Notes under the pieces: generated by a model | Database searches by the model: none | What the model saw: the letters and a program-made list of their open reading frames with translations, nothing else | What the model was told of the DNA's origin: nothing | Assembly: GCA_964414295.1 (NCBI GenBank) | Contig: CAYPVU010000031.1 | Span: 17,885-81,884, forward strand | Source of the DNA: an uncultured Candidatus Saccharibacteria bacterium | Lineage (GTDB): Bacteria; Patescibacteriota; Dojkabacteria; J137 | Direction of reading: 5' to 3' | DNA: 64,000 bases | In this document: piece after piece, positions 183-15,835 of the stretch | Numbering within the stretch: the first letter of the stretch is position 1 | How the letters are laid out: the number at the start of each line of letters is the position of its first letter | Program-made: the position numbers and the translations under genes

Positions 183-563
183 ATGATAACTACTTTACCC
201 CTTAGATGGATTGAAAAAATAAACCCTTACTACTATGAAAATTTAGAGGAAGGTGAAGAAATAATGTGGAATACATTATGGAATTTTAACGATTGCGAAT
301 GGTCAGAGGAAAACGCAAAGAAAGTCAGAAATTGCGGAATGATACCAGTTGATGTTGATGGATTGATTTTCTGTGCATTGTCGGGTTGTGGAATGGATTT
401 AACAGCAACAGTTATTTACACACAATACAAGCTAACAGGAACAATTGAATTTGATTATGCAAAATATATCAAAAATGAGCCTCAAGATTATGTTGAATAT
501 GTAATCGGGAAAAAGAAAAGAACCGAGTTACTTACTTATATAAATAATTATTTCTACCTATAA
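183..563 (+). CDS. hypothetical small protein (126 aa)
   Basis: ORF in a tight cassette with the next ORF (1-nt gap). No recognisable motifs. Confidence 0.35.
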   Translation: MITTLPLRWIEKINPYYYENLEEGEEIMWNTLWNFNDCEWSEENAKKVRNCGMIPVDVDGLIFCALSGCGMDLTATVIYTQYKLTGTIEFDYAKYIKNEPQDYVEYVIGKKKRTELLTYINNYFYL

Positions 564-747: not shown

Positions 748-753
748 CAGGTT

Positions 754-782: not shown

Positions 783-818
783 ATAAAACTATTAATTATA
801 AATTTATTAAATAACAAA

Positions 819-1019
819 ATGGACTATATAAAATACCCAATAGCAAAAACATTGATTGAATGTATTGAACACTTAGAAAAAGGCGGTGAACTATGGCAGG
901 AGTTAAGTACAACTCCCGAAGATGGCGAACTTGCTCAAATTGAAAATTATGATGAATTAATGGATTTAGTTGATTATGAGGAAGATGTTGAAGACTGGCA
1001 AATTCATCTAATAGATTAA
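819..1019 (+). CDS. hypothetical small acidic protein (66 aa)
   Basis: ORF with a highly acidic C-terminus, followed by the second copy of the hairpin repeat. Confidence 0.3.
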   Translation: MDYIKYPIAKTLIECIEHLEKGGELWQELSTTPEDGELAQIENYDELMDLVDYEEDVEDWQIHLID

Positions 1020-1033
1020 TTTTGCAAACCTTT

Positions 1034-1056
1034 GAGGGTTAGAAGGTAAAACCCTC
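1034..1056 (+). repeat. Second copy of the hairpin element (gagggtt..aaccctc)
   Basis: Same stem sequence as 132-154, with similar flanks (aaacctt..., ...aaatttg). Confidence 0.5.
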
Positions 1057-1191
1057 AAAATTTGAGCAGTTGAAACTTACTTTCTTTATCTCTAGCCGAA
1101 ATAAGAAAGTAAGCAAAGAAAGTTGGCTTTTGCTTTTACATCGATAGAAGAATAGTATATTATTTGATAATAATATTTTGCATATAATAGA

Positions 1192-1404
1192 TTGATGGTC
1201 ACTCTTGCAGAGAAAATCAGAACTAGACGTATTGAATTATCCCTGACACAGGAACAATTGGCTATAAAAGCTACAATTCCATACACTACATTATCGAAGA
1301 TTGAAAATGGATTTGTATTGAACCCAACAGTCAAAACACTTAAAAAAATTGCAAAAGCGTTAGAAGTTAATATAGAGGATTTGGTAAAACATGTACAAAT
1401 ATAA
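1192..1404 (+). CDS. HTH XRE-family (Cro/C1-type) transcriptional regulator, controller (C)-protein-like
   Basis: The 70 aa sequence has an XRE-type HTH (LSLTQEQLAIKATIPYTTLSKIENG). Its stop overlaps the downstream methyltransferase start. TATAAT at 1183-1188 is 7 nt upstream of the ATG at 1195 (the track start is TTG at 1192). Confidence 0.75.
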   Translation: MMVTLAEKIRTRRIELSLTQEQLAIKATIPYTTLSKIENGFVLNPTVKTLKKIAKALEVNIEDLVKHVQI

Positions 1405-3229
1405 ACCAGTTATAGCAGAACCACATACACCACCATACAAAATACATAAGTATTTTGCACGAAGACCATGGAATGTTTTCGAACAGTTGGTATGCGAGTT
1501 TGCTAAGGAAAATGAGATAGTATTAGATCCATTTTGCGGTGGTGGAGTAACTATATACGAAGGTATTAAAAATAATAGAAAAGTAATAGGCTTTGATTTA
1601 AATCCTTTATCAATATTCATAGTGGAAAACATGATAAAGGGGTATGATGATATTGCCAAAATCAAAGATATTTATAACTCATTAAATAAATATTTAATGA
1701 GTTTATACGAAAACCTAAAAGAATTTCAAATAGGAGAAAAAGATTTATTTGGAGAAAGAAATTCTCTTGAGTTATGGAATGAATTAACCTTTATCGTATC
1801 TTGCCCCGTTTGTGGTAAATCAACTCAGTTACTTAATAGTCAAAAAGTTAAAAATGGCTTTTACAAGTGTCAAAATGATAATTGCCCTTCTCATAATTCA
1901 AATGTAAATTATTTTCAAGCTAACAAAGCTAAAAGAATTGGAAGGAAATATCTACTAACTGTATACAAAGAATCAAGTAAAAAGAAGGTTGTTCCGTTTG
2001 ATATACATCGAGAAAAAGCATTCCAAAAACATGTTCAATGGTTAAAAAAACAAGTAAGCGATGCAGGTATAACAATACCACAGGAAATTATTCCGATGAA
2101 TTGGGATCGTCAATTCGAAGACACGTTAAGTAAAAAAGGAATACTATATTTCAAAGATTTCTTCACTGAGCGGAATTTATATATAAATCTTTTATTAAAA
2201 GAGAGAATTGATTCGGAACTAAGTGAAACAGAAAGAGATATTTTTAGGTTAATATTTAGTAGTTCGTTAAAAGATACAAATATTATGTCTTTCACAGTTG
2301 ACTCTTGGCAAGGAGGTAACCCAACTTCATGGTCAAAGCATGCTTATTGGATTCCGAATCAATTTTGTGAGACATCAATTATAGAAGCATTTAAGAATGC
2401 TTTTCAAAGGATGGTTGCATCAATAGAGTTTAACAATAGTCATAAAGTAAATGGAAGAAAGGTAAATACATTTGATGAGTTAAAAGGCGAATCAAATGTA
2501 CTCCTTTACAACACTTCAATTTCAAATGAAATCCCCGATTGTGTAATTGATGCAATTATTACTGATCCTCCCTACGGAAGCAATGTACAGTATTTAGAAC
2601 TTTCACATTTTTGGCATATTTGGAACTACGATTTATACAAAAACTCTAACCCTGAGTTTTCTAAAGAAGCCATATTCAATAGAAAGAAAAATTTTGATGG
2701 CTATAAGGACATTAAACAGTACGAAACAAACTTAGAATCAGTATTTAAAGAATGTTATAGAGTCCTGAAAAATGAACGATTCATGACGCTAACATTTAAC
2801 AATAAGGATATTGGAGCATGGCTTGCAATATTAATTGCTATTTTTAAATCTGGTTTTGAATTAGCAGAGAATGGTATCTACTTCCAAGATGGAGTTAAAA
2901 ACTATCGGCAAACATCACATACAAAGTCTAAAGGTTCTCCGTTTGGAGACTTCATATATGTCTTTGTTAAAAATACAAAACAACTCAAAACTAAGGAAAT
3001 TACGCAAAGTGAATTTGTTGATAGATTCCACAAACTTTTTGAGGAGTATGAAAATATAGAGATTGAAGGTACTGAGGAATTAAATCAAAATCTTATAAGG
3101 TTATTTAATAATCTCGTTCCATTAGTTTCTCAACTTGTTAAAACATTTGATAAACACAAAGAAGATCACAGTTTATATGAAATATTAAATAAAAAATATA
3201 TAGACAAACTCTATGATAAAAAGAATTAG
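1391..3229 (+). CDS. DNA amino-methyltransferase (N6-A/N4-C) with Zn-ribbon, COG1743/DUF1156-like N-terminus
   Basis: Motif I is LDPFCGGGVT. A Zn-ribbon is present (CPVCGK...YKCQNDNCPSH). Motif IV is ITDPPYGSNVQY. N-terminal IHKYFARRPW resembles the DUF1156 signature. Confidence 0.8.
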   Translation: MYKYKPVIAEPHTPPYKIHKYFARRPWNVFEQLVCEFAKENEIVLDPFCGGGVTIYEGIKNNRKVIGFDLNPLSIFIVENMIKGYDDIAKIKDIYNSLNKYLMSLYENLKEFQIGEKDLFGERNSLELWNELTFIVSCPVCGKSTQLLNSQKVKNGFYKCQNDNCPSHNSNVNYFQANKAKRIGRKYLLTVYKESSKKKVVPFDIHREKAFQKHVQWLKKQVSDAGITIPQEIIPMNWDRQFEDTLSKKGILYFKDFFTERNLYINLLLKERIDSELSETERDIFRLIFSSSLKDTNIMSFTVDSWQGGNPTSWSKHAYWIPNQFCETSIIEAFKNAFQRMVASIEFNNSHKVNGRKVNTFDELKGESNVLLYNTSISNEIPDCVIDAIITDPPYGSNVQYLELSHFWHIWNYDLYKNSNPEFSKEAIFNRKKNFDGYKDIKQYETNLESVFKECYRVLKNERFMTLTFNNKDIGAWLAILIAIFKSGFELAENGIYFQDGVKNYRQTSHTKSKGSPFGDFIYVFVKNTKQLKTKEITQSEFVDRFHKLFEEYENIEIEGTEELNQNLIRLFNNLVPLVSQLVKTFDKHKEDHSLYEILNKKYIDKLYDKKN

Positions 3230-4541
3230 CAACACAATTAACATACTGGATATTGAAAAATATAATTCTCTAGTAAATGACTATTACAATGTAATCGATT
3301 CTTTATCAAAAAGATTCATAGTTACTGAAAACTATGAACTTGGGAAATTGGTGAATTTTAAAAGTAACTTAAAAGTTCCAAAGCACAATTGGTTCAATTA
3401 TAAACAAGGATATGCAAGCAGACTCGTTAAACAGATAATTGAATGGGAGAAAAAAAATCTAGTTGAAAATTCTGTCATTCTGGATCCGTTTTGTGGAGTT
3501 GGAACTACAAATTTAGAATCGCAAATTTTAGGTTACAGTTCTGTTGGTTATGATATCAATCCAATTGCCTTGTTAATTGCAAAAACGAAGACAACTTTCT
3601 ATACAAAACAAGAATTAGGAGATATCTTAGAAAAGATCAATAAATTTAAAATTGAAATAAATGATATTAAAAGACCTGAGATCCCTGAAGCCAAGGTCTT
3701 AATCAGCTCTTTTAGTCATGAGATTCTAGAAAACCTATTTAGAATCTTAAAATGGACTGAGCAAATTGAAGAAATAAAGACAAGAGACTTTTTTAAATTG
3801 GTTTTAATTTCAACAGTAGATCCATCGTCTTGTAGAGTGAAAGATGGAAATGGAATAAAGCTCTCTAAAACAAAAAAAGTAGTTGAAAATACTTTTGAGT
3901 TTTATTTCAATACTGCTATGCAATTCTATAAGGATATTGAAGAAATAAACTTAGATGTTCCTGTTTCAATAAACGAAGGATCATACTATAAGCATGAAGA
4001 TAATAATGATTTATATGATTTAATTATATATTCCCCTCCATACGCTAACTGCTTCGACTACTTTGAAGTGTATAAACTAGAAATGTGGGTTGCAGGATTT
4101 ATAAGTAAGTATAGTGACTTTGAGGCATACAGAAATTTAGCTATGAGGTCTCATGTCAATGCTAAATTTTCTCATGATTTTACTAATAATTATGCTGAGA
4201 TTAAGCTTATTTCTGATCTCATTCGAACTACTAATGTTTGGAATAAAAATATTCCTGATATGATAATGGGATATTTTGATGATATGTCTACAACACTAGA
4301 ACTTAATTATAAACAATTGAAAAAGGGTAAAAGATGTTACATTGTAGTTGCGAATTCTGGCTATCGTGGAATACTAGTGCCTACAGATTTATTACTTGCT
4401 AAGATTGCATCAAATTATGGATTTAAAATTGTTAATATTTTCCATACTAGAGATATTCGTTCTTCCTCGCAACAAATGAATATCTTAAAGAACGGGTACA
4501 ATAAATTGATGCGGGAGAGTATAATTGTTTTAGAAAAATAA
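3213..4541 (+). CDS. Second DNA amino-methyltransferase (N6-A or N4-C)
   Basis: Motif I is ILDPFCGVGTT and motif IV is IIYSPPYANCFDY, with about 180 aa between them (TRD). It overlaps the upstream methyltransferase by 17 nt. Confidence 0.75.
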   Translation: MIKRISNTINILDIEKYNSLVNDYYNVIDSLSKRFIVTENYELGKLVNFKSNLKVPKHNWFNYKQGYASRLVKQIIEWEKKNLVENSVILDPFCGVGTTNLESQILGYSSVGYDINPIALLIAKTKTTFYTKQELGDILEKINKFKIEINDIKRPEIPEAKVLISSFSHEILENLFRILKWTEQIEEIKTRDFFKLVLISTVDPSSCRVKDGNGIKLSKTKKVVENTFEFYFNTAMQFYKDIEEINLDVPVSINEGSYYKHEDNNDLYDLIIYSPPYANCFDYFEVYKLEMWVAGFISKYSDFEAYRNLAMRSHVNAKFSHDFTNNYAEIKLISDLIRTTNVWNKNIPDMIMGYFDDMSTTLELNYKQLKKGKRCYIVVANSGYRGILVPTDLLLAKIASNYGFKIVNIFHTRDIRSSSQQMNILKNGYNKLMRESIIVLEK

Positions 4542-7378
4542 TGAAATATCTAGAAATTTTAAAAAGAAGATTTAATTCGTGGAAAGAAGTTGAATCTATA
4601 ATCGAAGCATTACCTACAACATATGAAAAGGGGGAAGCCTTCGAGCAATTCGTATTTGCGTATTTATCATTAAATAAATCGCAATATCAAATAAAAGAGT
4701 TATATAGGTCTAAAGATATTCCTCTTACATTTTTAGAAAAATACCGTATAGAAAAAAAAGATAGTGGTGTTGACGGGTTTATCGTTTTTGAAGATGGCAA
4801 GGTTGCTGGATATCAAGTAAAATTCAGAGTAGATAGAAAAGTCCCATCATATGACGAATTAGCTAAGTTCTGGGTTGAATCTCAATATACAGACTATAAT
4901 TATATCGTTGCTAATTGTTATTATCTTACTGAACTAGCCCTCAAGAATCCAAAGCATTTAGCTATTTTAGTGGATACTTTCGATTCACTAACTGATGACT
5001 TTTTTGCTGAATTTCATTCACTAGCGAATTCTCAGGTTGTAAAAGAAAGAAACATTCTAAGACCTTACCCTTTCCAAATTAGGATGATAAATGACATTTT
5101 AGAAGGCTTCAAAAAGAATGATAGAGGTAAATTAATCGCAGCCTGTGGAACTGGTAAAACATTGACATCACTTTGGGTTGCAGAAAAGATTAAGGCAAGT
5201 AGCGTTCTTTTCATTGCTCCCAGCTTGGCTTTAATAAAACAGACACTTGAGAAATGGATGCAGAATTCCATAGTTCCTATTGATTATATCTGTGTTTGTA
5301 GCGATAAAACAGTAGTAAACGAGGATGAAGGAGATATTTTGGCAAGTGAAATTGGTGTGCCAGTAACAACAGATAAGAATGAATTAATAAAGTTCTTAAG
5401 TTCACCTAAGGCCCCCGAAAAATTAAAAGTTGTATTTTCCACATATCAGTCACTTGATGTTGTAAGTAATGCAAGTCTAGAACTAAAGAGTTATTCTTAT
5501 GATCTAGCGATATTTGACGAGGCACATAGAACAGCAGGTTCAAAAGATTCAAGTTTATTCTCTTTGGGATTAAACAATGATTTCATAAATATTCATAAAA
5601 GATTATTTATGACTGCTACCGAAAGACTTATCAAACCTTGGATTAAGAAAAAAGCTGAAGAAAACGAACGTATATTATTTTCTATGGATGATGAGAACCT
5701 CTATGGTCCAGTATTTCATAGATTTTCTTTTGGCGAAGCGATTAAAGAAAGTGTAATTTCAGACTATCGAGTAGTTGTCGCCTCTACAGATGAAAAGTCC
5801 CTTTTGGAAATGCTAAATAAAAACAATATTCTCGAAGTTATTAATAAAAATAACAGTTTAACAAACGCTCAAAATCTTTTTAAACAATTACTGTTGTTAA
5901 AATCTTTTCAGGAATTACCAATTAAAAAGACAATAACTTTCCATTCAAATGTTTTAAAGGCAAAAGAGTTTATCAATGGTGTAAATTCAAATGAACTTAC
6001 TTTTGCTGATTTAGTGAAAAGTCTCGGTAATTTCAACAATAGTTTTTTCTTGGATCATGTAAATGGAAGCATGTCTTCAGGGAAACGAAAAGAAATAATG
6101 CATAATTTTGAAATTTCTGAGTATGGTATTGTTTCTAATGCACGTTGTTTAACTGAAGGTGTTGATGTACCACTCATCGATAGTATATATTTTGTTAATC
6201 CAAAGACCTCAATTATTGACATAGTGCAAGCATGCGGAAGAGCATTAAGAAAAAACAATAACGATTCGAATAAAACTGCTTATTTCATCATACCTGTCAT
6301 TGTTAGTGAAAATAATAATGCAGGAGTTAATAGTGAAGAATTTGAGATGGTTTTTAATGTAATTCAGGCGTTAAGGGACCAAGATAGTAGAATGGCAGAA
6401 TGGATAGATACCTTAAACGATCATCTTGTAAAAGGAAAGGTGTCAAAATTTTCAAGTGGTAAAACTTCACCAATTTCAATAATTCTTCCAAAATCTATCA
6501 ATATAGATGACTTTTCTCGAAATTTGTTAATCCGAATCGCAGATGTAAACAAAAACCCAATTACTTTTTTAAAGACAAAGAGTTACGGTAAAAATGAAAG
6601 AAAAAGTCAATTTAAAAGAGTATTTAAAACAATAGGTGATATTTCTTACGATTCCTTTCAAAAGAATCTTGTTGATCCAACATTAGCAAGATTTAAAAAT
6701 GTTGATGAAATTGTTGAAACAGCTAAATTAGTAATAAACAATAATAATTTATCCCATACCGAACGACTTGGCTTATTGATTAGAGAAAATAAATATGCCT
6801 CACTGACTCCGTTGGGTAAGGCTTATTTTAGAGGGCAAATAAAGTTTATAGATCTGTTTAAGAGACAAATGCTTTATTATTTTAGTAAAGAAGAATTGGA
6901 TGGAAAGGAGATGATAATTTTTCCATACAGAACGACACTAAAAGTCCTCTTAGAAAAAGACTTTATAAGTTTTACCGACTTCGTATTTGGGATTTACTCG
7001 CTTAACAATAGTGAAAGTGATTTTGTCTATCAGTCAATAAATAGAATTAATACACTTAGAAGTAGATTCCCTAATATTGAACAATCTAATATTTCAAATC
7101 GAGAGAAACTTATTGTAGAGCTAAATAATCTATTTGAAACGAATTTTTCTATAACAGATTTATGGGAAAAGAAGACTACTATCAATAATCAGTTTATTTA
7201 CTTTAGAAATCACCTTAGTTTATTTGGAGATATGTTAGAAATTGATAATTCTAACAGAGTAATACGATTGCAAAAGGAAGGATATAATAATCTAAGGAAA
7301 ATAATAAACGATAGTAACATGATAGAAAGTTATACTAATATAAGTATTCTCCGTGAACAATACACAACCATAAATTGA
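4541..7378 (+). CDS. Restriction-type Mrr-like (PD-(D/E)xK) nuclease fused to SF2 DEAH helicase, with a 330-aa uncharacterised C-terminal domain
   Basis: N-terminus has GEAFEQFV and DSGVDGFIVFEDGKVAGYQVKF (Mrr_cat-like). Helicase motifs are AACGTGKT (I), IFDEAHR (II) and QACGRALR (VI). Its start overlaps the stop of the second methyltransferase. Confidence 0.8.
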   Translation: MKYLEILKRRFNSWKEVESIIEALPTTYEKGEAFEQFVFAYLSLNKSQYQIKELYRSKDIPLTFLEKYRIEKKDSGVDGFIVFEDGKVAGYQVKFRVDRKVPSYDELAKFWVESQYTDYNYIVANCYYLTELALKNPKHLAILVDTFDSLTDDFFAEFHSLANSQVVKERNILRPYPFQIRMINDILEGFKKNDRGKLIAACGTGKTLTSLWVAEKIKASSVLFIAPSLALIKQTLEKWMQNSIVPIDYICVCSDKTVVNEDEGDILASEIGVPVTTDKNELIKFLSSPKAPEKLKVVFSTYQSLDVVSNASLELKSYSYDLAIFDEAHRTAGSKDSSLFSLGLNNDFINIHKRLFMTATERLIKPWIKKKAEENERILFSMDDENLYGPVFHRFSFGEAIKESVISDYRVVVASTDEKSLLEMLNKNNILEVINKNNSLTNAQNLFKQLLLLKSFQELPIKKTITFHSNVLKAKEFINGVNSNELTFADLVKSLGNFNNSFFLDHVNGSMSSGKRKEIMHNFEISEYGIVSNARCLTEGVDVPLIDSIYFVNPKTSIIDIVQACGRALRKNNNDSNKTAYFIIPVIVSENNNAGVNSEEFEMVFNVIQALRDQDSRMAEWIDTLNDHLVKGKVSKFSSGKTSPISIILPKSINIDDFSRNLLIRIADVNKNPITFLKTKSYGKNERKSQFKRVFKTIGDISYDSFQKNLVDPTLARFKNVDEIVETAKLVINNNNLSHTERLGLLIRENKYASLTPLGKAYFRGQIKFIDLFKRQMLYYFSKEELDGKEMIIFPYRTTLKVLLEKDFISFTDFVFGIYSLNNSESDFVYQSINRINTLRSRFPNIEQSNISNREKLIVELNNLFETNFSITDLWEKKTTINNQFIYFRNHLSLFGDMLEIDNSNRVIRLQKEGYNNLRKIINDSNMIESYTNISILREQYTTIN

Positions 7379-7411
7379 TTTTTTTAGCGGAATTAATAAC
7401 AATTTGCTTTC

Positions 7412-7440
7412 TTGACGGTTTACGCTATATGCGGTAAAAT
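7412..7440 (+). promoter_or_regulatory. Sigma70-like promoter of lexA (TTGACG-17-TAAAAT) with an embedded imperfect palindrome
   Basis: TTGACG 7412-7417 and TAAAAT 7435-7440. The lexA ATG at 7447 makes a leaderless transcript. TTTACGC-TATAT-GCGGTAAA overlaps the spacer and -10. Confidence 0.5.
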
Positions 7441-7446
7441 TAACGC

Positions 7447-8091
7447 ATGTATAAAAGCGACTTAACACCAAAACAAAGAAATGTTCTCCTTGCAATTGAG
7501 CATTTGTTCAGGATTAATTCTGTTTCACCAACTCTTGAGGAAATTCGCCAGTATCTTAATTATAGTAATACCAGTTCAGTACAAAGGCACATTGAGCCAT
7601 TAATTAAAAAAGGGTATTTAAGAAATCAAGAAAATAAGTCTAGAAGCTTTGAAGTTATCAGCAGTAATATTGATTTAATTAACATTCCACTTGTTGGTAA
7701 TATTGCCTGTGGAATTCCTATCCATGCTGAAGAAAATATTGAAGCTTATATTCCATACCCTAAACAGGATACAAAGTATTCAGTTTCGGAACTATTTTTT
7801 CTCAGAGCTATTGGTGACAGTATGAACGATTATTGTATTAAAAACAAACCAATTCACGATGGGGATTTCGTTTTAATACATCAACAAAGTAATGCAGACT
7901 TAGGACAACCAGTTGTAGCTCTAGTTGGTGACGAAGCTACAATTAAGATTTTCAGTAAAGATACAAATCTTGGAGCTTATGTTTTAAAGCCAAAGTCTAA
8001 TAATCCTAAACATAAACCAATTTTAATATTTGATAATCTTTCAATACAAGGTGTTGCAGTAGATGTAATTAAACCTAAATTATTAAATTAA
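7447..8091 (+). CDS. lexA: LexA repressor (S24 peptidase)
   Basis: N-terminal winged helix (PTLEEIRQYLNYSNTSSVQRHIEPLIKKGYL), an Ala-Gly cleavage site (NIACGIP), the catalytic Ser in GDSM and a downstream Lys. Confidence 0.9.
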   Translation: MYKSDLTPKQRNVLLAIEHLFRINSVSPTLEEIRQYLNYSNTSSVQRHIEPLIKKGYLRNQENKSRSFEVISSNIDLINIPLVGNIACGIPIHAEENIEAYIPYPKQDTKYSVSELFFLRAIGDSMNDYCIKNKPIHDGDFVLIHQQSNADLGQPVVALVGDEATIKIFSKDTNLGAYVLKPKSNNPKHKPILIFDNLSIQGVAVDVIKPKLLN

Positions 8092-8095
8092 TAAT

Positions 8096-8341
8096 ATGAA
8101 GAAAACTAATTATCATGTAATGAAGCATCCCGAAGGTGGGTGGCAAGGCAAAAAGGAAGGGAGCCAAAAGGCAACATTCAAGACCGAGACTAAAAAACAG
8201 GCTGAATTGAAGGCTAAAGCGATAGTTTCCAATCAGGGTGGTGGCGAAGTTAAATTACATGGAGTAAAAGGAAATATTTTGGATTCCGATACAGTTAAAC
8301 CCGCAAAAGATCCAAATCCTCCAAAGGATAAAGTTCATTAA
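8096..8341 (+). CDS. DUF2188-family small protein
   Basis: NYHVMKHPEGGWQGKKEGSQKA...HGVKGNI matches the DUF2188 pattern. It lies 4 nt after lexA. Confidence 0.6.
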   Translation: MKKTNYHVMKHPEGGWQGKKEGSQKATFKTETKKQAELKAKAIVSNQGGGEVKLHGVKGNILDSDTVKPAKDPNPPKDKVH

Positions 8342-8358
8342 TTTTTATTAGACTAAAT

Positions 8359-8712
8359 ATGATAGATTTTTTAGAAAACATTTCATTGATTCATTGGCTT
8401 ATTGGAATAATTATTGTATTAATCCCGATAGCTATTTACTTTATGAAATACATAATTCTACAAATTAAATTTGCTAGAAACTTGAGAAGGAAAATCTATT
8501 TTATAAAATTGAATGATAGTAAACCACTCACAACAGAAAGGACACTTATATCAAATACTCACCTATTCAATGTCGAAAAAGAGATATATTCGATTTCTAA
8601 TGATCCCAAAATATTACAATTAATGAATAAGCACAGTTTATTTGTTGTCGGATATGATAATGGTTATGAAAGAGATGAAGATTTACATAAACTTCTAACT
8701 AAGATTTATTAA
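8359..8712 (+). CDS. Small membrane protein (one N-terminal TM helix), candidate SOS-regulated
   Basis: Hydrophobic segment WLIGIIIVLIPIAIYF and a 17-nt gap after the DUF2188 gene. Confidence 0.4.
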   Translation: MIDFLENISLIHWLIGIIIVLIPIAIYFMKYIILQIKFARNLRRKIYFIKLNDSKPLTTERTLISNTHLFNVEKEIYSISNDPKILQLMNKHSLFVVGYDNGYERDEDLHKLLTKIY

Positions 8713-8758
8713 ATTTTACTGAACTGCTAGAATAGGTTAACTACTTGAAAGTAAAAAT

Positions 8759-9181
8759 ATGGCAGTAAACATTGCAGGAGTTATTAAAAATATTAGACAG
8801 ATAGGCATTTATACGCCTATTATTGAGGCTATTGTAAACTCGATTGAGTCAATAATTCAAAGTAAGCGTGATGATGGAAGAATAACTATAAAAATAGTTA
8901 GAGATACCCAATCTAGATTTGGTGGAGAAGATGACAGTATTCCTTATATTAGATCATTTGAAATCACAGATAATGGCGTAGGCTTTACAGATGAAAATTT
9001 GAAATCATTTGATACATTGTATACTGAGTATAAGCTAACAACAGGTGGTAAAGGATTTGGAAGGTTTACTTTTTTAAAATTCTTTTCTGATGTCAAAATT
9101 GAAAGTATTTATAAAGTAGATAATGCTTACTTAAAAAGATGTTTTAAGTTTGGGACTAAAGAAAATATAGTTGAGAACTAA
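8759..9181 (+). CDS. GHKL (MORC/HATPase_c_3-like) ATPase domain, N-terminal fragment ending at an in-frame TAA
   Basis: N-box EAIVNSIES, D-x-G-x-G box TDNGVGF and a G-rich box TGGKGFGRF. It is in the same reading frame as 9197..10753. Confidence 0.6.
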   Translation: MAVNIAGVIKNIRQIGIYTPIIEAIVNSIESIIQSKRDDGRITIKIVRDTQSRFGGEDDSIPYIRSFEITDNGVGFTDENLKSFDTLYTEYKLTTGGKGFGRFTFLKFFSDVKIESIYKVDNAYLKRCFKFGTKENIVEN

Positions 9182-9196
9182 ACAGTTGTTGAAACT

Positions 9197-10753
9197 TTGG
9201 CAGATGATACAAAAACAACTCTTTATTTAAGTAATTTATTTGATGAACATCTTGAAAAATTTGATAAAAAAATTGAGACTGTTGCAAAAAGATTAGTAGA
9301 TAGTTTATTGATTTATTTTATTTCCCCTGATTTTAAATGCCCAGAAATCATACTTATCGAAGATAATAGTAATGATTCAATTATTCTTAATGATTTTGTT
9401 AAAAGTGAAGAGTCGATTAAAAGAGTCAAAGATGGCAGTTTTGAAATTGATAGGTCAGGAAAAACATATTCATTTGATGTAAAAGTTTTCAAAATTTATT
9501 CTGCACATAATCAAAGTAGTAACATAATACTTTGCGGTCACAATCGAGAAGTTACTTCTTCTCCTTTACATAACTATGTTCCAGAATTTAAAGATGAGTT
9601 CTTCGAAAATGTAAAAGGAGATTCTGAAGATGATATAAAAAAGAATTTTATTATAAGAACTTATGTTATTGGAAAATATCTAGATGAGAATGTCTCGCTT
9701 GAAAGGTCTCGATTTGAAATTCCAAGGAAGAAAAATGACGATGCCTTATTGAACTCAATCTCTCAAGAAGAAATTGAACTACTTGCGGTGGAGATAACTA
9801 AATCCCAATTTAGTGAGGATGTTCTTTCTCGCCAGTTGAAGAAAAAAGAAAGAGTTGAAAAGTATGTTAATACAGAAGCTCCATGGAATAAAGTCTATTT
9901 GGATAAAATTGATTTTAACTCAATACCTTACGATGCTTCTGATGTAGAAATCGAAACTATTCTTCATAAGGAGAGAATCGCTCACGAAGTAAAGGTAAAA
10001 CAGGATATTTCAAACATCTTAAAAAACAATGATGATTTTGTTAAGAGTGTAGATGAAGTTGTTAGTCAACTTAATGATGTAAGCAAAACGGATCTTGCTC
10101 ATTATGTTGTACTTAGAAAAAATGTTTTAGATTTGTTTAAAAAATCCTTAGAGATACAGCCGAATGATACATATGACTTAGAAAAAGCAGTACACCAAAT
10201 AATATTCCCATTAAAATCTAATAGTACCAATACGGAGTATAAAGACCATAACCTATGGTTAATTGATGAGAGATTGAGTTTCCATGAATATGTCTCTTCA
10301 GATGAACCATTGAAAGAAACTAACGACAGACCTGATATCTTGATTTTTGACAAGAAAGTATTGGTAAGGAATGATAATGAACTTTCAAACCCCCTTTATA
10401 TTTTTGAGTTTAAAAGACCACAGCGAGAAGAGTATTCAGAGGGTGATGATCCTATAAAACAAATTAATCGATATGTTGAACAGATAAGAGCGGGTAATTT
10501 TAAAACTAAAAGTGGACGAACTGTAATTGCAAATGCTAATACTCCTGCATATGGTTTTATAATATGCGATTTAACGCCCAAAGTGAGAGCATTTTGCAGA
10601 GATGCTCAATTAACCCAAAGTTCTGATGAACAAGCGTATTATGGCTATCACTCTTCTTACAAAATATACTTTGAAGTCATAAGCTTTGATAAACTGGTCA
10701 AGGATTCAGAATTAAGGAATAGAATTTTCTTTAAAAAGTTGGGATTAGAGTAA
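9197..10753 (+). CDS. PD-(D/E)xK nuclease-containing protein; probable continuation of the GHKL ATPase gene
   Basis: RPDILIFD...YIFEFKRP is a PD-(D/E)xK motif. The track start is TTG with no ATG or SD. It is in frame with 8759..9181, separated only by TAA at 9179-9181. Confidence 0.6.
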   Translation: MADDTKTTLYLSNLFDEHLEKFDKKIETVAKRLVDSLLIYFISPDFKCPEIILIEDNSNDSIILNDFVKSEESIKRVKDGSFEIDRSGKTYSFDVKVFKIYSAHNQSSNIILCGHNREVTSSPLHNYVPEFKDEFFENVKGDSEDDIKKNFIIRTYVIGKYLDENVSLERSRFEIPRKKNDDALLNSISQEEIELLAVEITKSQFSEDVLSRQLKKKERVEKYVNTEAPWNKVYLDKIDFNSIPYDASDVEIETILHKERIAHEVKVKQDISNILKNNDDFVKSVDEVVSQLNDVSKTDLAHYVVLRKNVLDLFKKSLEIQPNDTYDLEKAVHQIIFPLKSNSTNTEYKDHNLWLIDERLSFHEYVSSDEPLKETNDRPDILIFDKKVLVRNDNELSNPLYIFEFKRPQREEYSEGDDPIKQINRYVEQIRAGNFKTKSGRTVIANANTPAYGFIICDLTPKVRAFCRDAQLTQSSDEQAYYGYHSSYKIYFEVISFDKLVKDSELRNRIFFKKLGLE

Positions 10754-11086
10754 CTATCTTTTAATAATTTTGTTCAATACTATCCGTAAAAAATAAAATG
10801 GTAGCCAAAATAAGATTCCAATACACCCAAAACTTCCAAACCCACTATTCTTGTAGATTCTCTTTCCTTTTCCTCTTTTATACATCATAATAATTACAAG
10901 TTTAAATTAACTTCGGAGTAATAAGCAAGGAATTTCCAACGATTTTGTAGCTCGGAAACAAACTGCAATACTTTGGAAAAAAGTTCGTAACGCGTCCTGT
11001 CGCTCCGATATAATTACCAATTCCCGGAAACACTAATTATTCTTGGTGCTATAATCTTCACGTGCAGACTAATACCAGGAGGGTAT

Positions 11087-11332
11087 ATGAAGTTAATAAT
11101 GCTGCAAGATCCTTTAACCCTAGCGTTGGTTGTAATCAGTGTACTGTGCTTAGTTTGGGCAGTCTTCGTGCTCCTTGTAAGGGCAAGCCTTACAAAAAGC
11201 TATGTACGGGAAATGAGGAAAACGCGGCCTAGGTTTAGAAGGCTGACTCTAGCAGCTCTGCTAGTGGCTCTCGGGCCGTTTACAGTAGCAGTTTTGCTCC
11301 TGCTCCTGCGTCTTAAGACAATGGGGTTTTAG
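11087..11332 (+). CDS. GC-rich small hydrophobic protein (81 aa, two TM segments), likely horizontally acquired
   Basis: TATAAT at about 11050 and an AGGAGG SD 4 nt before the ATG. Codon usage is ctg/ctc/gcc, atypical for this genome. Confidence 0.4.
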   Translation: MKLIMLQDPLTLALVVISVLCLVWAVFVLLVRASLTKSYVREMRKTRPRFRRLTLAALLVALGPFTVAVLLLLLRLKTMGF

Positions 11333-11352
11333 GCTCTAGGGTCTGCACAAAT

Positions 11353-11378
11353 AAGCAGGGTGAAATACCCCTGCTTAA
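11353..11378 (-). terminator. Hairpin terminator downstream of the HIT gene (minus strand)
   Basis: gcaggg-tgaaatac-ccctgc stem. On the minus strand it is followed by a T-rich tract right after the HIT stop at 11387. Confidence 0.5.
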
Positions 11379-11386
11379 AGAGTTTG

Positions 11387-11785
11387 TTAGGAATTTAATT
11401 TACTCATTATTTCTTTTGCTACTTCTTTGTCTAGCTGTCCTTTTGTTCGTGGGTTAAAACTCTCAGCTTCTTCCATACTTCTAAAAGGATATAGTTTTGC
11501 ATGTAAGTGATTAACTTCAAATCCCTCAAAGATTAAAACAGTTCTTAAGGTATTAAGTTTTGAATCTAAAAGTAGAGCAGTTTCCTTTACAAAATCCCAA
11601 TATTTATTCATAAATTCTGAATCCTGCTTAAAAACATAAGAATCTCTTTGCTTTTTAGGAATTACTAAAGTTTGAGCATACGATGAAGGAAATGCATCTA
11701 AAAATGCCATAAACTCTTCATCTTCCCTAATAATATATGCCGGTATTTCTTTATCTGCGATTTTTTCAAAGATTGTTTTTTCCAT
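11387..11785 (-). CDS. HIT (histidine triad) family nucleotide hydrolase
   Basis: Histidine triad-like HLHAKLYP and Hint-like length (132 aa). Confidence 0.75.
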   Translation of the reverse strand: MEKTIFEKIADKEIPAYIIREDEEFMAFLDAFPSSYAQTLVIPKKQRDSYVFKQDSEFMNKYWDFVKETALLLDSKLNTLRTVLIFEGFEVNHLHAKLYPFRSMEEAESFNPRTKGQLDKEVAKEIMSKLNS

Positions 11786-11870
11786 AAAAAGATTGATTAA
11801 AATTGGTATACGATATTTAAAATTAAATTTATAACTGAATAATATTATATTACATTTATCCTATTTTCTT

Positions 11871-12242
11871 ATGAGCAAATCAATTCAGGAAATTACTAAA
11901 ATTATTGTAGACTTTGCAGAAGCAAGAGGATGGAAGAACGAGAATCCATCCCACCTATTAAATGCTATTTATGTAGAGTTAGGTGAACTAACAGAGCACT
12001 ATCAGTGGAAAAATGACTTTAGTAAATTTAAAGATATAGATGAAAGTAAAAAAACAGAAATAGGCTTTGAATTTGTAGATGTAATCTTTTATATGTTTAG
12101 ACTTGCCTACAATAGCGGAATTGATATTGAAGAATACTTCGATAAAAAACTTCCCAAATTAGAAGAGAAGTTTAAAATCGGTGGTGACCATGGAAAGGCG
12201 CATAGAGAGTATAGAAAGACTGGTAAAAACAAGCTTTACTAA
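11871..12242 (+). CDS. MazG-like nucleoside triphosphate pyrophosphohydrolase
   Basis: ELGELTEHYQW and EIGFEFVDVIFYMFRLA (EExxE/D-like MazG motifs), 123 aa. Confidence 0.65.
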   Translation: MSKSIQEITKIIVDFAEARGWKNENPSHLLNAIYVELGELTEHYQWKNDFSKFKDIDESKKTEIGFEFVDVIFYMFRLAYNSGIDIEEYFDKKLPKLEEKFKIGGDHGKAHREYRKTGKNKLY

Positions 12243-12988
12243 GCCTCTGGATCTAGTTTTGATTTAGCGGAGAGTGGTATTAATTCTCCATTTCTAACTA
12301 AATATCTTTGTAGGCCAACATTTAAAATATCTCCGTTTTTTAAATCTTTAAAATCACCTTTACCTATCCTTTTAATAACTTTTTCTCTAGTAACTCTACC
12401 ATTGGCCAAATATCGTTCTTCAGTAGTTTCAACCGTCATAACTAATGATTTATCTGGCTCCATTGCTTGAATATATTCTTCTATTGCAAAGGCGTTTTCC
12501 ATTAACATCCTATGAAGTTTTGCTGGAAACTTCCGCAAAGAAGAGTACTTTCTAAATACTGATATATATTCTTTTAACAATTCAACTGGTTTGTCTGCTA
12601 TACGATCGGGTATAGATAAAAATTCAATTTCTCTAAGTGCTATTAACTCCTCGTCTGTTGCTCCTAACTGATTTTGAACAAAGTTAAGCATTTCTTCAAA
12701 TCCAGCATCTGTCGATAACACCAATGCATATAAGTCCGGAGATTCTCCAAGCATGCTTAGTATTTGATTCACCTGTTCTTCTTCTACTTCAATTTCTAAT
12801 CTAAGGTATAAAATAAATCCTACAATATTTTCTTCATTTAAAAGTCTTTTTAGTTCAGCAACTTGATGTCTGCCTAAACTTTTTATGGATTTTAATTTAT
12901 TAATGACATCTTTTATTTTGTTCTCAGATTTAACTAAGTATAGATCTACATCTTGATTAAGATTTGAGTCATCCCATTCAAAAGCCAT
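12239..12988 (-). CDS. hypothetical protein (249 aa)
   Basis: ORF convergent with and overlapping the MazG-like gene by 4 nt. No confident motif. Confidence 0.4.
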   Translation of the reverse strand: MAFEWDDSNLNQDVDLYLVKSENKIKDVINKLKSIKSLGRHQVAELKRLLNEENIVGFILYLRLEIEVEEEQVNQILSMLGESPDLYALVLSTDAGFEEMLNFVQNQLGATDEELIALREIEFLSIPDRIADKPVELLKEYISVFRKYSSLRKFPAKLHRMLMENAFAIEEYIQAMEPDKSLVMTVETTEERYLANGRVTREKVIKRIGKGDFKDLKNGDILNVGLQRYLVRNGELIPLSAKSKLDPEA

Positions 12989-13087
12989 ATAAGTGTTTTA
13001 ACCAAAGGAGTTTACTACGAAATGTTGAGTTTAGGAAAGTGTAGAGGGTGAAGAGCTGTTGGCCATTTACTTCACCCCCTGATTCGT

Positions 13088-13555
13088 TTAGCGGACTTCG
13101 ACAACCATATGGTCGTCGATTTCAAGAACTTGAATAACTTCACCCAGTTCAGGGTACTCCTGTACCGGGTCTTTCGTCTTCACGGAATAGGGCAGTAGGG
13201 TTAGAATCACCTTGTGTTGCCCTATTGTGATGCTTGGAAACACTGGCGACACAGAATTCAAACTGACTTCCGGTCTATCAGGCTTCCTTGCACCAACTAC
13301 ATGCATTAAGCGCCCCGTCACGATCTCGGGGAGCGGAAGTTCAGGTGCGGCACGCAGTTTATACTTTGTACCCACTTCGCGACTTCCCTCAGTCACGCTT
13401 TCCGGCTCTTGCAGCAAGAACGCAAAAACTCTTGCTTCATCCTGCTTAGCAGCCGCCTTCCATTCCTCAGCCAGAAGAATGGTTGTATTGTCCGGTGTGT
13501 TCAAAATCACCAGACGCGAGAAGCGAACTTCCATGCACACCTCCGTTGCCAACAA
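13088..13555 (-). CDS. GC-rich hypothetical protein (155 aa), likely foreign origin
   Basis: About 52% GC within an about 30% GC genome. The translation is coherent and non-repetitive. The true start is possibly the second Met (MEVRFSRL). Confidence 0.45.
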   Translation of the reverse strand: MLATEVCMEVRFSRLVILNTPDNTTILLAEEWKAAAKQDEARVFAFLLQEPESVTEGSREVGTKYKLRAAPELPLPEIVTGRLMHVVGARKPDRPEVSLNSVSPVFPSITIGQHKVILTLLPYSVKTKDPVQEYPELGEVIQVLEIDDHMVVEVR

Positions 13556-13653
13556 CTGATAACATTATATAACAGTTCTATATTATTGTAAATATACCCT
13601 TCCACTTATTAATCAGATAGGTATAATAGATTAAATAGATATTAAATATAAAT

Positions 13654-14190
13654 ATGGCAATTCAAACAGCAACTTTTGCAGCAGGATGTTTTTGGTGTGT
13701 AGAAGCTATTTTTGAAAGAGTAAAAGGCGTTAGTAAAGTAGTTTCTGGCTACACTGGAGGATTTATGGACAATCCTACATACGAACAAGTTAGTACAGGT
13801 AAGACGGGCCATGCAGAAGCAACTCAAATTGAATTTGACGACAGCATTGTAAGTTTTAGAGATTTGGTAAATATTTTCTTTTTAACTCACGATCCTACAA
13901 CTTTAAATAAACAAGGCGCTGATATAGGGTCACAATATAGATCTGCAGTTTTTTTTAATAGTGAAGAGCAAAAAAGCATAGCAGAGGAAGTAAAGAAAGA
14001 AATAGAAGAAAAGAAAGTGTATTCAGACCCTATAGTTACTGAAATATCGGAATTAAAAAAGTTTTATTCTGCAGAAAAGTATCATCAAAACTTTTATGAT
14101 AATAATAGAGACTATCCATACTGTAAGATAGTTATAGATCCAAAAGTTTCTAAATTTAGAAAAGAGTTTATAGATAAGATTAATGAATAA
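13654..14190 (+). CDS. msrA: Peptide methionine sulfoxide reductase MsrA
   Basis: Active-site GCFWC motif and length consistent with MsrA. Confidence 0.9.
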   Translation: MAIQTATFAAGCFWCVEAIFERVKGVSKVVSGYTGGFMDNPTYEQVSTGKTGHAEATQIEFDDSIVSFRDLVNIFFLTHDPTTLNKQGADIGSQYRSAVFFNSEEQKSIAEEVKKEIEEKKVYSDPIVTEISELKKFYSAEKYHQNFYDNNRDYPYCKIVIDPKVSKFRKEFIDKINE

Positions 14191-15835
14191 TAAATTAATT
14201 AAAGGGTTCGTTTTTGTATTAATACTAGTATCTACTAGCACCTTTTTTCAATTAAACCTAAGCGCAGAAACTCACTACAAAAGAGTATTAACAATAGGAG
14301 TAAACCCAGTTGAAAACGGAGAAAGTTTGGTAGAAAAGTTTTTTGGTAATTCTTCTAATATAGAAAACTCAACCTTCAATGGAGCAATAAGCAGACTTAA
14401 TCAAATTGGAATAAACTATACAATAGCAAGGCATATTAATATTTCTGAGTTTCCGCTTTTACCTAATGGTAATCGAGTATTTAATATGAATTCTTATTCA
14501 AAGTGTGTTGGTGGAGGAACAGCACAGGACATTCAAAACTGCGACAATAGCAAATGGCAATTCAGTTATTCTAAATTCTTTGATGATTTCAATATATGCT
14601 CAATAGCAAATCAAGAAAACGTAGATGAAATTTGGATTTTAACACCTCCCTATATTGGCAAGTGGGAGAGTTTATTAGTTGGTCCTTATGAGGGGTTTTG
14701 GATTAATGGAGTAGCAGAGGTTAATAGTAACTGCAATAAACTTTATCCAGTTATGGGCCCTACTTATGACCGTCCCGAAAATTTACTTCATAACTTTGGA
14801 CACAGAATAGAATCTACGATTGAATATATATTTACAAATATTAAAGATGAAGATAAAAATACCCACTGGAGAAGGTTTTCCGGATTTGGAGGTCAACCGC
14901 TAGGATGTGGTAATACACATTTCCCAAGAAATTATAGATATGACTACGATTATTCCAATCCAAGCCCAGCATCTTTTAATTGCCCTGACTGGAAAAACTT
15001 TCCTAATTATAATGGAGCAACAATAAATGTGGGCTGCAATAGCTGGGGATGTGATGACCCTGGATGGGAGAGGTTTTGGTTTTCTTACATACCTTCATCT
15101 AGTGGAAATGCTGTTATATACAATACAAACAATCAGGCAGTAAGTATAAAAAAAGACTGGTGGTACTATATATTAAATCCTCAAGAATCAATTGCTTTTG
15201 TTAATTACTCTTCTAATCCAGGACCACTTGAATGTTCCATATTCTCTTATTCAGAATGGAGTAAATGCATAGATGGTACACAAACAAGAACTTTAACAGG
15301 TAGTAATCCTCCTGGATGTACTGGAGGAAGTCCTGTTTTGTCTCAATCCTGTACTGTTTGCTACAAATATACTTACTCTAACTGGGGTGCTTGTATAAAT
15401 GGAATACAAAAAAGATTTATTACACAATTAACAGAAACTAATTGTCCTGGAGAGGAGAAAAAAAGTTTAGAGCAGAGCTGTTCAAGTATCAATAACCCAA
15501 CGGGAAATACTCTTCCTCAAAGTCCCGAAGGTAATTCACAAGAACCAACACCTACAGTTACAATTCCTACAAACTTACCTATATTAAATACAGTTCCAAT
15601 CTCTTACTCACCAGCTCCAACATTGGCAGATATATTATCTGCAATAATTCCTGGATTAAAAACTCAGAATACACAAGAAGGTGTAAGCTACACAATAAAC
15701 CCTTCTTTTGATGAAATAAATAATCGTTTAGTGAACCTAATGGCTGTATTAGCAATTTCTGGTGCAGGTTTAGTAATAATGATTTATGTATTTTTATACA
15801 GTAAGGTTATCGTTAAAAGATTTAAAAAAGCATAA
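14183..15835 (+). CDS. Secreted cell-surface protein with tandem Cys-containing ~45-aa repeats and a C-terminal TM anchor
   Basis: Signal peptide present. Repeats are YSEWSKCIDGTQTRT...C...QSC and YSNWGACINGIQKRF...C...QSC. C-terminal hydrophobic anchor followed by KRFKKA. Confidence 0.5.
   Translation: MNNKLIKGFVFVLILVSTSTFFQLNLSAETHYKRVLTIGVNPVENGESLVEKFFGNSSNIENSTFNGAISRLNQIGINYTIARHINISEFPLLPNGNRVFNMNSYSKCVGGGTAQDIQNCDNSKWQFSYSKFFDDFNICSIANQENVDEIWILTPPYIGKWESLLVGPYEGFWINGVAEVNSNCNKLYPVMGPTYDRPENLLHNFGHRIESTIEYIFTNIKDEDKNTHWRRFSGFGGQPLGCGNTHFPRNYRYDYDYSNPSPASFNCPDWKNFPNYNGATINVGCNSWGCDDPGWERFWFSYIPSSSGNAVIYNTNNQAVSIKKDWWYYILNPQESIAFVNYSSNPGPLECSIFSYSEWSKCIDGTQTRTLTGSNPPGCTGGSPVLSQSCTVCYKYTYSNWGACINGIQKRFITQLTETNCPGEEKKSLEQSCSSINNPTGNTLPQSPEGNSQEPTPTVTIPTNLPILNTVPISYSPAPTLADILSAIIPGLKTQNTQEGVSYTINPSFDEINNRLVNLMAVLAISGAGLVIMIYVFLYSKVIVKRFKKA

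Follow-up and report, generated by a model that had tools for sequence, protein, structure and literature searches.

The 64-kb stretch of DNA considered here (contig CAYPVU010000031.1 of an uncultured bacterium of the Dojkabacteria lineage), which is referred to as the window, carries a lexA gene followed on the same strand by genes for a small DUF2188 protein and a one-transmembrane (1TM) protein, and by a frame for a GHKL ATPase joined to a probable PD-(D/E)xK nuclease domain. We consider it fairly probable that this locus represents a LexA-autoregulated defence operon, or slot, of Dojkabacteria that works with a logic similar to that of the CapH/CapP regulators, and that its cargo has decayed in the window. 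The proposal is built on observed gene identities, an operator footprint, tight gene spacing, flanks that are syntenic around exchanged cassettes, and a nonsense codon within the cargo. All positions are those of the window, of which the Pfam and PHROG scans took in the first 11 kb and sampled genes beyond. The related set started from 80 metagenomic lexA loci, which together with additions from exact look-up gave 69 non-redundant loci, individually designated by L numbers.

In the proposed mechanism, LexA would repress its own promoter (7412-7440) via an operator located between the -35 and -10 elements, and a leaderless transcript would run from lexA through DUF2188 into a variable cargo slot, which is bounded by a conserved convergent open reading frame (ORF) of 44 aa. 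DNA damage or phage replication would generate RecA-bound single-stranded DNA and thereby induce LexA self-cleavage at Cys88-Gly89. The loss of LexA would then increase transcription of the whole string, such that expression of the immune cargo is low at rest and increases upon infection or damage. The slot in the window would hold a truncated 1TM effector with no cyclase partner, and a GHKL gene lost to one nonsense codon.

LexA Protein

The product of the first gene is, on the strength of its profile matches, a genuine LexA. It matches Peptidase_S24 (PF00717, 1.3e-20) and, over residues 4-66, LexA_DNA_bind (PF01726, 5.5e-12), and it scores 135.2 bits against the cut-off of 110.95 for the NCBIfam lexA equivalog TIGR00498, covering profile positions 2-200 of 203. 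The dyad composed of Ser125 in the GDSM motif and Lys167 is invariant in an alignment of the window LexA with 15 relatives. These matches agree with an earlier sequence-only reading of the locus, in which a genuine LexA with a winged helix and a GDSM serine was recognized, although the Ala-Gly cleavage site given there is in fact Cys88-Gly89, within IAC-G-IP. In the clade alignment, the cysteine is nearly invariant and the glycine is invariant. Self-cleavage at Cys88-Gly89 is plausible because Cys-Gly is the functional cleavage site of UmuD. LexA also matches a PHROG family annotated as 'transcriptional repressor'. A search of the genome contig collection with the LexA protein returned a single irrelevant partial match, and 2.9 million viral contigs yielded one full-length relative, which is located on the same CBASS (cyclic oligonucleotide-based antiphage signaling) locus as L079.

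Promoter and Candidate Operator of lexA

A sigma-70-like promoter precedes lexA (Table 1), and an equivalent -35/-10 layout is aligned over 49 related loci. The imperfect palindrome TTACGCTATATGCGGTAA between the two elements is proposed as the LexA operator and is the sole match to this sequence within the window at three mismatches or fewer. Its left half-site TTACGCTA has one exact copy in the window, that of the lexA promoter. Of the 65 non-redundant related loci (out of 69) that have enough upstream sequence, 56 show TTACGCTA with at most one mismatch in the 70 nt ahead of the lexA start, against a chance expectation of 0.019 per 70 nt. The half-site is at -23 to -32 in 49 of the 56 and nearly always falls at -27 to -32. 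The left half, (A)TTTACGCTA, hardly varies across these 49 aligned sites; 14 of them have a right half within two mismatches of TAGCGTAA, and perfect palindromes of the form TTACGCTA-NN-TAGCGTAA are found in a few. Judging by this conservation, TTACGCTATATGCGGTAA/TTACGCTA provides a strong phylogenetic footprint of a predicted autoregulatory operator, to which LexA would bind.

Further LexA boxes were sought in the window, and the 32 one-mismatch matches to TTACGCTA, against 47.7 expected, are at chance level; extra exact copies of TTACGCTA in the related loci are mostly intragenic. The one-mismatch half-site TTGCGCTA at 34722-34729, situated 41 nt upstream of a gene for an Amidase_2 + SH3_3 cell-wall hydrolase (34763-35956), was rejected as an operator, as it is without the lexA-type promoter architecture and is probably a chance match. 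Closer to lexA, TAGCGGAA at 7385-7392 is one mismatch from the idealised right half-site TAGCGTAA; it is located 28 nt upstream of the operator TTACGCTA, just 5' of the -35 element, and could be either a chance occurrence or an auxiliary half-site.

The -10 element of the window ends 6 nt from the lexA ATG (window 7441-7449), and in most of the aligned lexA promoters of L009-L093 this distance is 6-11 nt with no visible Shine-Dalgarno sequence. Because the -10 element ends so near the start codon and no Shine-Dalgarno sequence is visible, the lexA mRNA is probably leaderless throughout the clade.

Gene Packing and Variable Cargo Behind lexA

Packing was counted over the 59 related loci whose sequence extends 400 nt or more beyond lexA. 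The gene after lexA is on the same strand in 53 of these loci; in 46 of the 59 the first same-strand gene starts no more than 25 nt behind the lexA stop codon, with a median gap of 2 nt, and the gap to the second gene has a median of 8 nt across unrelated cargo types. The first gene encodes a protein of at most 115 aa in 34 loci. In the window itself, the ORF positions and the gaps of 4, 17, and 46 nt behind lexA are as previously read, and a check of these gaps for promoters belonging to the downstream genes found no promoter-like site, nor was a terminator on the + strand seen in them. The earlier proposal of a lexA-headed operon is supported by the tight spacing and by the conserved, operator-bearing promoter, whereas co-transcription and SOS induction stay predictions.

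Known anti-phage systems, namely CBASS, Thoeris, Hachiman, Shedu, GmrSD, and AbiE, predominate in the cargo packed behind lexA in the relatives. In a set of 118 proteins encoded further downstream, Pfam identified SMODS in 15, AGS_C in 6, ThsB_TIR in 4, SLATT in 4, bacHORMA in 2, and Cap15 in 2, along with single cases of GmrSD, SduA_C, AbiEii, KAP_NTPase, and DUF2779; in the same 118 proteins, the CBASS cyclase models of PADLOC matched up to 18 members and its 1TM effector models 8-9. CBASS cyclases are found in 16 of the 69 lexA loci, and the order lexA-DUF2188-HamA-helicase, which corresponds to Hachiman, is found in L012 and L013. This cargo fits the suggestion that an SOS-linked defence gene lies behind lexA, although the gene in the window is interrupted. 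BLAST clustering of the downstream-chain proteins left 66 singletons. Furthermore, a family of 103-148 aa with no identified Pfam domain is encoded by the second gene after lexA in L039 (8845-9285), L050, L052, L057, and L073; this family and the family-less singletons are candidate new defence components.

The closest LexA proteins are those of L011 (69% identity) and L009 (70%). The flanks are common to the window and both loci, as are the operator and lexA, joined in L011 by DUF2188 (together window 7420-8365). On the left, the flanking ORF is homologous to the first ORF of L011 (phmmer 1.7e-19), and tblastx aligns window 390-1158 to L011 1-489; on the right, window 10760-10897 is aligned to L009 16161-16298 (61% over 46 aa) and window 10782-10856 to L011 5531-5605. 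Between these flanks both sides of lexA differ. Upstream are two methyltransferases and a Res subunit in the window, a C5-methyltransferase, a restriction endonuclease, and a C-protein in L011, and a Type I restriction-modification (R-M) system in L009. Downstream are the 1TM and GHKL genes in the window (2.4 kb), SMODS and SLATT_4 in L011 (1.5 kb), and a 1TM effector, SMODS-AGS_C, RelA_SpoT, and IS1595 in L009 (7.5 kb). The comparison outlines a core lexA with a variable slot on either side, R-M genes lying upstream and defence cargo downstream. In L009, the genes behind the CBASS pair (11036-14823) encode a 1014-aa RelA_SpoT-domain protein and an IS1595-family transposase, which points to active turnover of the slot.

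A three-gene block is located just upstream of lexA, usually in divergent orientation, in 10-13 of the 69 loci (L012:93-3381 on the - strand, L014, L019, L024, L027, L039, L046, L047, L052, L056, L065, and L082). Its genes encode a ParB_N + N6_N4 methyltransferase of ~443 aa, an HTH_Tnp_1_2-like protein of ~140 aa, and a Terminase_6C-like protein of ~500 aa. This block also adjoins defence islands that contain homologues of the GHKL gene (L004:1-2094 and L005:402-3629), and it may be the sign of an element, phage-derived or satellite-like, that is tied to these islands.

DUF2188 and DUF3892 Proteins

The 81-aa protein encoded directly after lexA matches DUF2188 (PF09954) at 4.7e-15 with 55.9 bits against a cut-off of 22 and covers profile positions 1-62 of 62, such that its previous identification holds at full length and above the gathering score; it also matches the PADLOC candidate PDC-S16 (7.1e-19). 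DUF2188 is the commonest first gene after lexA, occurring in 16 of the 69 loci. DUF3892 is the gene next to lexA in three loci (L017:1189-1482, L024:8626-8919, and one more), and the remaining first-gene positions are occupied by other small unassigned families. Both DUF2188 and DUF3892 occur in operons headed by CapH/CapP-like regulators, i.e., a helix-turn-helix (HTH) protein with a metallopeptidase, and CapH/CapP raises CBASS expression upon DNA damage (Lau et al., bioRxiv 10.1101/2022.04.27.489752). DUF2188 has furthermore been reported beside CBASS and Thoeris loci. The positions of DUF3892 and DUF2188 after lexA mirror this published pairing with CapH/CapP-like regulators, and any role of DUF2188 in the LexA unit is presumptive.

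Cargo of the Window: 1TM Protein

The 117-aa protein has one N-terminal transmembrane helix, as the sequence-only reading stated. Its proposed likeness to the division inhibitors SulA and YneA is not borne out, as it has no Pfam family at E ≤0.1 and neither a LysM nor a SulA domain, and its homologues are CBASS 1TM effectors. A phmmer search with this protein identified L093_8240 (1.2e-09) and L020_1460 (1.9e-04), and BLAST clustering placed it with nine proteins of 161-264 aa, eight of which are 161-172 aa. Eight of the nine relatives are followed by SMODS genes, and the contig of the ninth (L020) ends soon after the gene; members lie directly between lexA and the SMODS cyclase in L009, L063, L071, L072, L077, L079, L082, and L093. 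With the PADLOC CBASS model 'Effector 1TM' (PDLC00664), the L009 member gives a match at 4.5e-51, and this model is matched by 8 of the 118 cargo proteins scanned.

Compared with a type I CBASS with a 1TM effector, the window protein shares the transmembrane helix and the first ~100 residues, whereas the conserved C-terminal ~50 residues are missing from the alignment and the match to the C3a59 effector profile is weak and partial (E 0.0014, positions 5-101 of 167 only). Neither Pfam nor PADLOC found a SMODS/CD-NTase gene in the slot at 8342-10753, and the GHKL gene comes next. The protein is a C-terminally shortened homologue of CBASS-type 1TM effectors, its homology to members of that family being significant, and hence probably a cassette remnant; a naturally short variant is the alternative.

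Cargo of the Window: GHKL/PD-(D/E)xK Gene

The last cargo gene is split into two ORFs of the same frame, 8759-9181 (140 aa) and 9197-10753 (518 aa), which are parted by a TAA codon. The joined sequence has more than 1,395 homologues, the best 120 of which are nearly all 659-705 aa in length and cover 100% of it; intact relatives typically have 660-670 aa. The homologues are from Bacteroidota, Pseudomonas, and others, with source labels for some of them naming Chitinophagaceae, Cellulophaga, Draconibacterium, and Pseudomonas aeruginosa, among others. The TAA falls within the ATPase domain and parts motifs N/G1/G2 from the rest, and the other catalytic motifs are intact in the window. A reassigned stop codon was rejected as an explanation, as TAA terminates the lexA and DUF2188 genes. 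The identical stop is present in an independent Logan assembly contig of run SRR8581213. Because the motifs are otherwise intact, TAA is an ordinary stop codon of the neighbouring genes, and the Logan contig has the same stop, the nonsense mutation appears to be recent and the gene is a probable pseudogene; the intact, working nuclease gene supposed before is therefore interrupted in the window.

The residues invariant among 38 family members, namely E23, N27, D70-x-G72-x-G74, GGKGxGR (G95-R101, with K97 nearly invariant), D524, and E548-x-K550, are all retained in the window. HATPase_c is found in 37 of the 38 members. HATPase_c_3, the profile named for checking the earlier assignment, is found in 17 of the 38, with E down to 4e-5, and reaches 20.1 bits in the window gene, below its cut-off of 25. 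With the AlphaFold model of an intact relative, P0002 (predicted local distance difference test score, pLDDT, 82.9), Foldseek found HtpG/Hsp90, GyrB/ParE, TopoVI-B, MutL/MLH1, SMCHD1, and MORC3 with E values between 3e-11 and 5e-9, in alignments spanning 350-550 columns that correspond to the GHKL domain plus an S5-fold/transducer domain. A helical region of ~150 residues and an alpha/beta C-terminal domain follow the transducer. The label of a MORC-like GHKL ATPase stands in its GHKL part, by motif and by HATPase_c, whereas MORC3 ranks 46 in the fold search and Hsp90, GyrB, TopoVI-B, and MutL match at least as well.

The C-terminal domain is a probable PD-(D/E)xK nuclease according to its modelled fold and motif. 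The invariant D and ExK residues are located on the second and third strands of an isolated C-terminal model (pLDDT 68.6) with the order alpha-beta-beta-beta-alpha-beta; in model numbering, D35 precedes strand 36-41 and E59/K61 are at the end of strand 55-60. The nuclease assignment made earlier is thus consistent with the motif and the order of secondary structure elements, although its profile support is sub-threshold: PDDEXK_9 gives E 0.005 and 17.3 bits against a cut-off of 25.5. HSDR_N is found in 6 of the 38 members, with a best value of 1e-5. Foldseek with the C-terminal model gave nothing at E ≤0.001, the best nuclease being McrC at E ~0.1, and the domain had no matches among PDB sequences.

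A Shedu class with a GHKL domain (type 1D) has been described (bioRxiv 10.1101/2023.08.10.552793). The window family resembles this class, as well as the MORC and paraMORC proteins of R-M neighbourhoods, in combining GHKL with a middle region of the Hsp90/MORC/topoisomerase type and a C-terminal PD-(D/E)xK-like domain in defence islands. It differs from the GHKL-type Shedu in that it is without SduA_C/DUF4263 and has the ~150-residue helical insert before the nuclease, and from prokaryotic MORC in that its fold fits Hsp90, GyrB, and MutL no worse than MORC. Membership in Shedu was rejected, as the ten families listed at E ≤0.05 for the 38 members do not include PF14082 (SduA_C/DUF4263) and none of these members matches a PADLOC model. 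An hhalign comparison of the C-terminal profile with 531 proteins, each 150 aa or longer and encoded in the window or the retrieved loci, a set that should include the SduA_C-bearing cargo protein, found nothing outside the family itself.

Homologues of the GHKL gene occur in islands that are without lexA, i.e., beside Type ISP R-M, Pif1, and DUF2779 (L004/L005), Type I R-M and an OLD-family ATPase (L006), and Kiwa with a Type III-like R-M (L097). The expected location of the family in R-M and defence neighbourhoods is hence supported, and a specific link between lexA and the GHKL gene is not: none of the other 68 lexA loci carries the family, and the closest intact relatives have no lexA beside them. 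In P. aeruginosa (L094-L096:5386-10004), the homologue P0074 shares 4 nt with the end of a gene for an 872-960-aa AAA_13/AAA_23 ATPase, in an island that also contains an integrase, a DUF1016/YhcG nuclease, RadC, and ParB; the GHKL-nuclease and the AAA ATPase may constitute a two-gene form of the system.

Alternative Explanations

Several observations weigh against a LexA-controlled defence operon. The right half of the window operator is off the idealised TAGCGTAA at 3 of 8 positions and is degenerate and variable clade-wide, such that any binding geometry of LexA at this site is presumptive. No recA or uvr genes and no extra boxes were identified in the window, only part of whose proteins was scanned. 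Co-transcription and DNA-damage induction are predicted from spacing and conservation alone, and the 46-nt gap ahead of the GHKL gene could contain a hidden weak promoter. Both assemblies with the stop codon appear to be derived from one run, and the stop could represent strain-level variation. Furthermore, because the R-M cassettes lie upstream of lexA, beyond its control, the adjacency of defence genes could reflect an integration hotspot rather than regulation. In that case, a core lexA would merely border a hotspot for defence islands on both sides, the cargo would use its own promoters, and LexA would play no role. Syntenic flanks around exchanged cassettes are the hallmark of such a hotspot, an IS1595 transposase is among the L009 cargo, and the GHKL family is present in defence islands without lexA. 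We nevertheless regard the hotspot as an unlikely sole explanation, as the gaps behind lexA are tight or overlapping over unrelated cargo, the orientation is co-directional in nearly all loci counted, DUF2188 and DUF3892, which are families tied to damage-responsive defence regulators, recur directly after lexA, and the intergenic gaps of the window are without a promoter-like site.

Two further accounts have much lower probability. LexA might confer immunity as the repressor of a mobile element such as a prophage or satellite, with the downstream genes acting as superinfection-exclusion 'morons', as in the lambda cI-rexA-rexB arrangement; the divergent ParB_N-methyltransferase and terminase-like block upstream of some lexA genes and near the GHKL homologues of L004/L005 speaks for it, as does the PHROG match of LexA. 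This is very improbable, as LexA passes the lexA equivalog model, no phage structural gene, integrase, or terminase was identified in the first 11 kb and the genes sampled beyond, which were housekeeping genes, the flanks are syntenic with relatives as for a core gene, and the single full-length viral relative is on the CBASS locus already mentioned. For the window locus, a prophage origin was rejected because the context is one of housekeeping genes, no phage genes were identified in the part scanned, and viral contigs hold almost no members of this LexA clade. The least probable account, in our estimate, is a classical SOS operon for repair or the cell cycle, in which a YneA/SulA-like inhibitor would be accompanied by a LexA-specific, SOS-induced GHKL repair or toxin enzyme. 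The yneA gene adjoins lexA in Bacillus, an SOS division-inhibitor arrangement that the small transmembrane protein after lexA resembles in its placement, and GHKL plus transducer is also the architecture of MutL. However, the transmembrane protein is one of the 1TM effectors of the CBASS type by family, whose members are paired with SMODS cyclases elsewhere, and has no LysM, SulA, or any other Pfam match; the GHKL gene is interrupted and is restricted to the window among the lexA loci, and its relatives are found beside Kiwa, R-M, OLD, or Pif1, or in integrase-bearing islands.

Relation to Known Systems and Significance

A LexA-headed defence operon would offer another answer to the problem of silencing toxic abortive-infection systems until they are needed, for which CapW/BrxR, CapH/CapP, and CapK/CapS are known answers. 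As in those systems, a damage-responsive repressor would head diverse immune operons and its inactivation would raise expression (bioRxiv 10.1101/2022.04.27.489752; EMBO J 2026, PMC13373217). The likeness to CapH/CapP is one of function and not of membership: CapH/CapP consists of an HTH protein and a separate Zn-metallopeptidase, whereas the window LexA combines the winged helix and the S24 Ser/Lys dyad in one polypeptide, and capH/capP is described upstream on the opposite strand, whereas lexA is co-directional and part of the predicted transcription unit of the cargo. No description of LexA or an S24 protein as the head of defence operons was found in the literature searched.

In lexA-dinF of E. 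coli and in lexA with imuA-imuB-dnaE2, downstream genes are co-transcribed with lexA and the operator overlaps its own promoter. The window resembles these canonical SOS operons in its LexA and in a candidate operator that overlaps its own promoter. It differs from them in that the cargo of the clade consists of anti-phage systems and small DUF proteins instead of genes for repair, mutagenesis, or division, in its Cys-Gly cleavage site, and in its probably leaderless mRNA. In lambda cI-rexA-rexB, a self-cleaving repressor of the S24 type shares its transcript with an abortive-infection system; that arrangement belongs to a prophage immunity region, whereas the window locus is chromosomal and syntenic with no phage genes identified. 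The window operator, of the form TTACGCTA-NN-TAGCGTAA, also differs from the LexA boxes listed in PMC8565304.

What is new is the arrangement, a canonical LexA heading interchangeable defence cassettes in bacteria of the candidate phyla radiation (CPR) type, and not the individual genes. A wider proposal, which we advance only tentatively, is that canonical LexA serves as a built-in switch of the main defence island in Dojkabacteria and allied uncultivated lineages. The lexA operator and an adaptor gene (DUF2188, DUF3892, or others) would form a fixed head, behind which cassettes such as CBASS, Thoeris, Hachiman, Shedu, and GHKL-nuclease are interchanged, and DUF2188 and DUF3892 would be functional partners of damage-sensing repressors, e.g., modulators of cleavage or of cargo activation, and not mere passengers. 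If true, the oldest bacterial stress regulon would be tied directly to immunity, and abortive-infection immunity in tiny genomes would be wired directly to the SOS signal. Furthermore, the position downstream of lexA would provide a genomic anchor for mining defence genes in uncultivated lineages, and the enigmatic DUF2188 and DUF3892 proteins would acquire a testable role. The widespread and uncharacterised ~665-aa GHKL-ATPase/PD-(D/E)xK family is, in addition, a candidate single-gene defence system. The two cargo genes of the window itself are probably remnants.

Gene Layout of the Window

The region 1-10753 is an unbroken string of genes on the + strand (Table 1). The dnaA, ftsK, tyrS, and argS genes and a yifB-type gene are present in the window, and the locus is chromosomal, not phage, because dnaA, ftsK, tyrS, and argS lie within it. 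All named relatives of the window DnaA are from Candidatus Dojkabacteria (CPR/Patescibacteria).

Table 1. Positions of the lexA promoter, the lexA-headed genes, and the flanking genes in the window.
Feature	Position	Strand	Basis or remark
Conserved left-flank gene, 126 aa, no family	183..563	+	Left edge of variable R-M slot
Small HTH (XRE-type) protein, head of R-M cassette	1192..1404	+	HTH_3/HTH_19/HTH_26 in identical Logan contig L001
Two N6/N4 DNA methyltransferases	1391-3229, 3213-4541	+	N6_N4_Mtase 8.9e-24, 5.6e-11; PADLOC MTase_II 1.1e-35, 1.1e-70
ResIII/DEAD helicase-type restriction subunit, 945 aa, last R-M gene	4541..7378	+	ResIII 1.5e-20, Helicase_C 1.9e-09
lexA promoter, TTGACG-17 nt-TAAAAT, sigma-70-like	7412..7440	+	Promoter scan, 10/12 matches
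Candidate LexA operator TTACGCTATATGCGGTAA, imperfect palindrome between -35 and -10	7420..7437	+	Phylogenetic footprint
lexA, 214 aa	7447..8091	+	Winged helix + S24 peptidase
DUF2188 small protein, 81 aa	8096..8341	+	PF09954
1TM protein, 117 aa	8359..8712	+	Single N-terminal transmembrane helix
GHKL/PD-(D/E)xK frame, 664 codons	8759..10753	+	Interrupted by TAA 9179-9181
In-frame TAA	9179..9181	+	Leu/Glu position in the 'IVEN-L-VT' stretch of relatives
Conserved convergent small hydrophobic protein, 44 aa	10754..10888	-	Right edge of cargo slot, directly abuts GHKL stop codon

Adjacency to an R-M locus, as read previously, is confirmed: the R-M genes stop 68 nt ahead of lexA. The small HTH protein at their head matches PHROG transcriptional-repressor families (best 2.5e-15) and is possibly the R-M controller protein. 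The 945-aa restriction subunit matches PADLOC REase_MTase_IIG at 1.3e-105 over the N-terminal 662 profile positions and is akin to the Type ISP enzymes of L004/L005. Directly to the right of the cargo slot, the GC content rises from ~0.30 to 0.37-0.42 over 10900-13600. This stretch holds an 81-aa ORF with two transmembrane segments (11087-11332), and ORFs without family matches are found on the minus strand at 12239-12988 and 13088-13555; it could be a second foreign insert or a mere compositional outlier.

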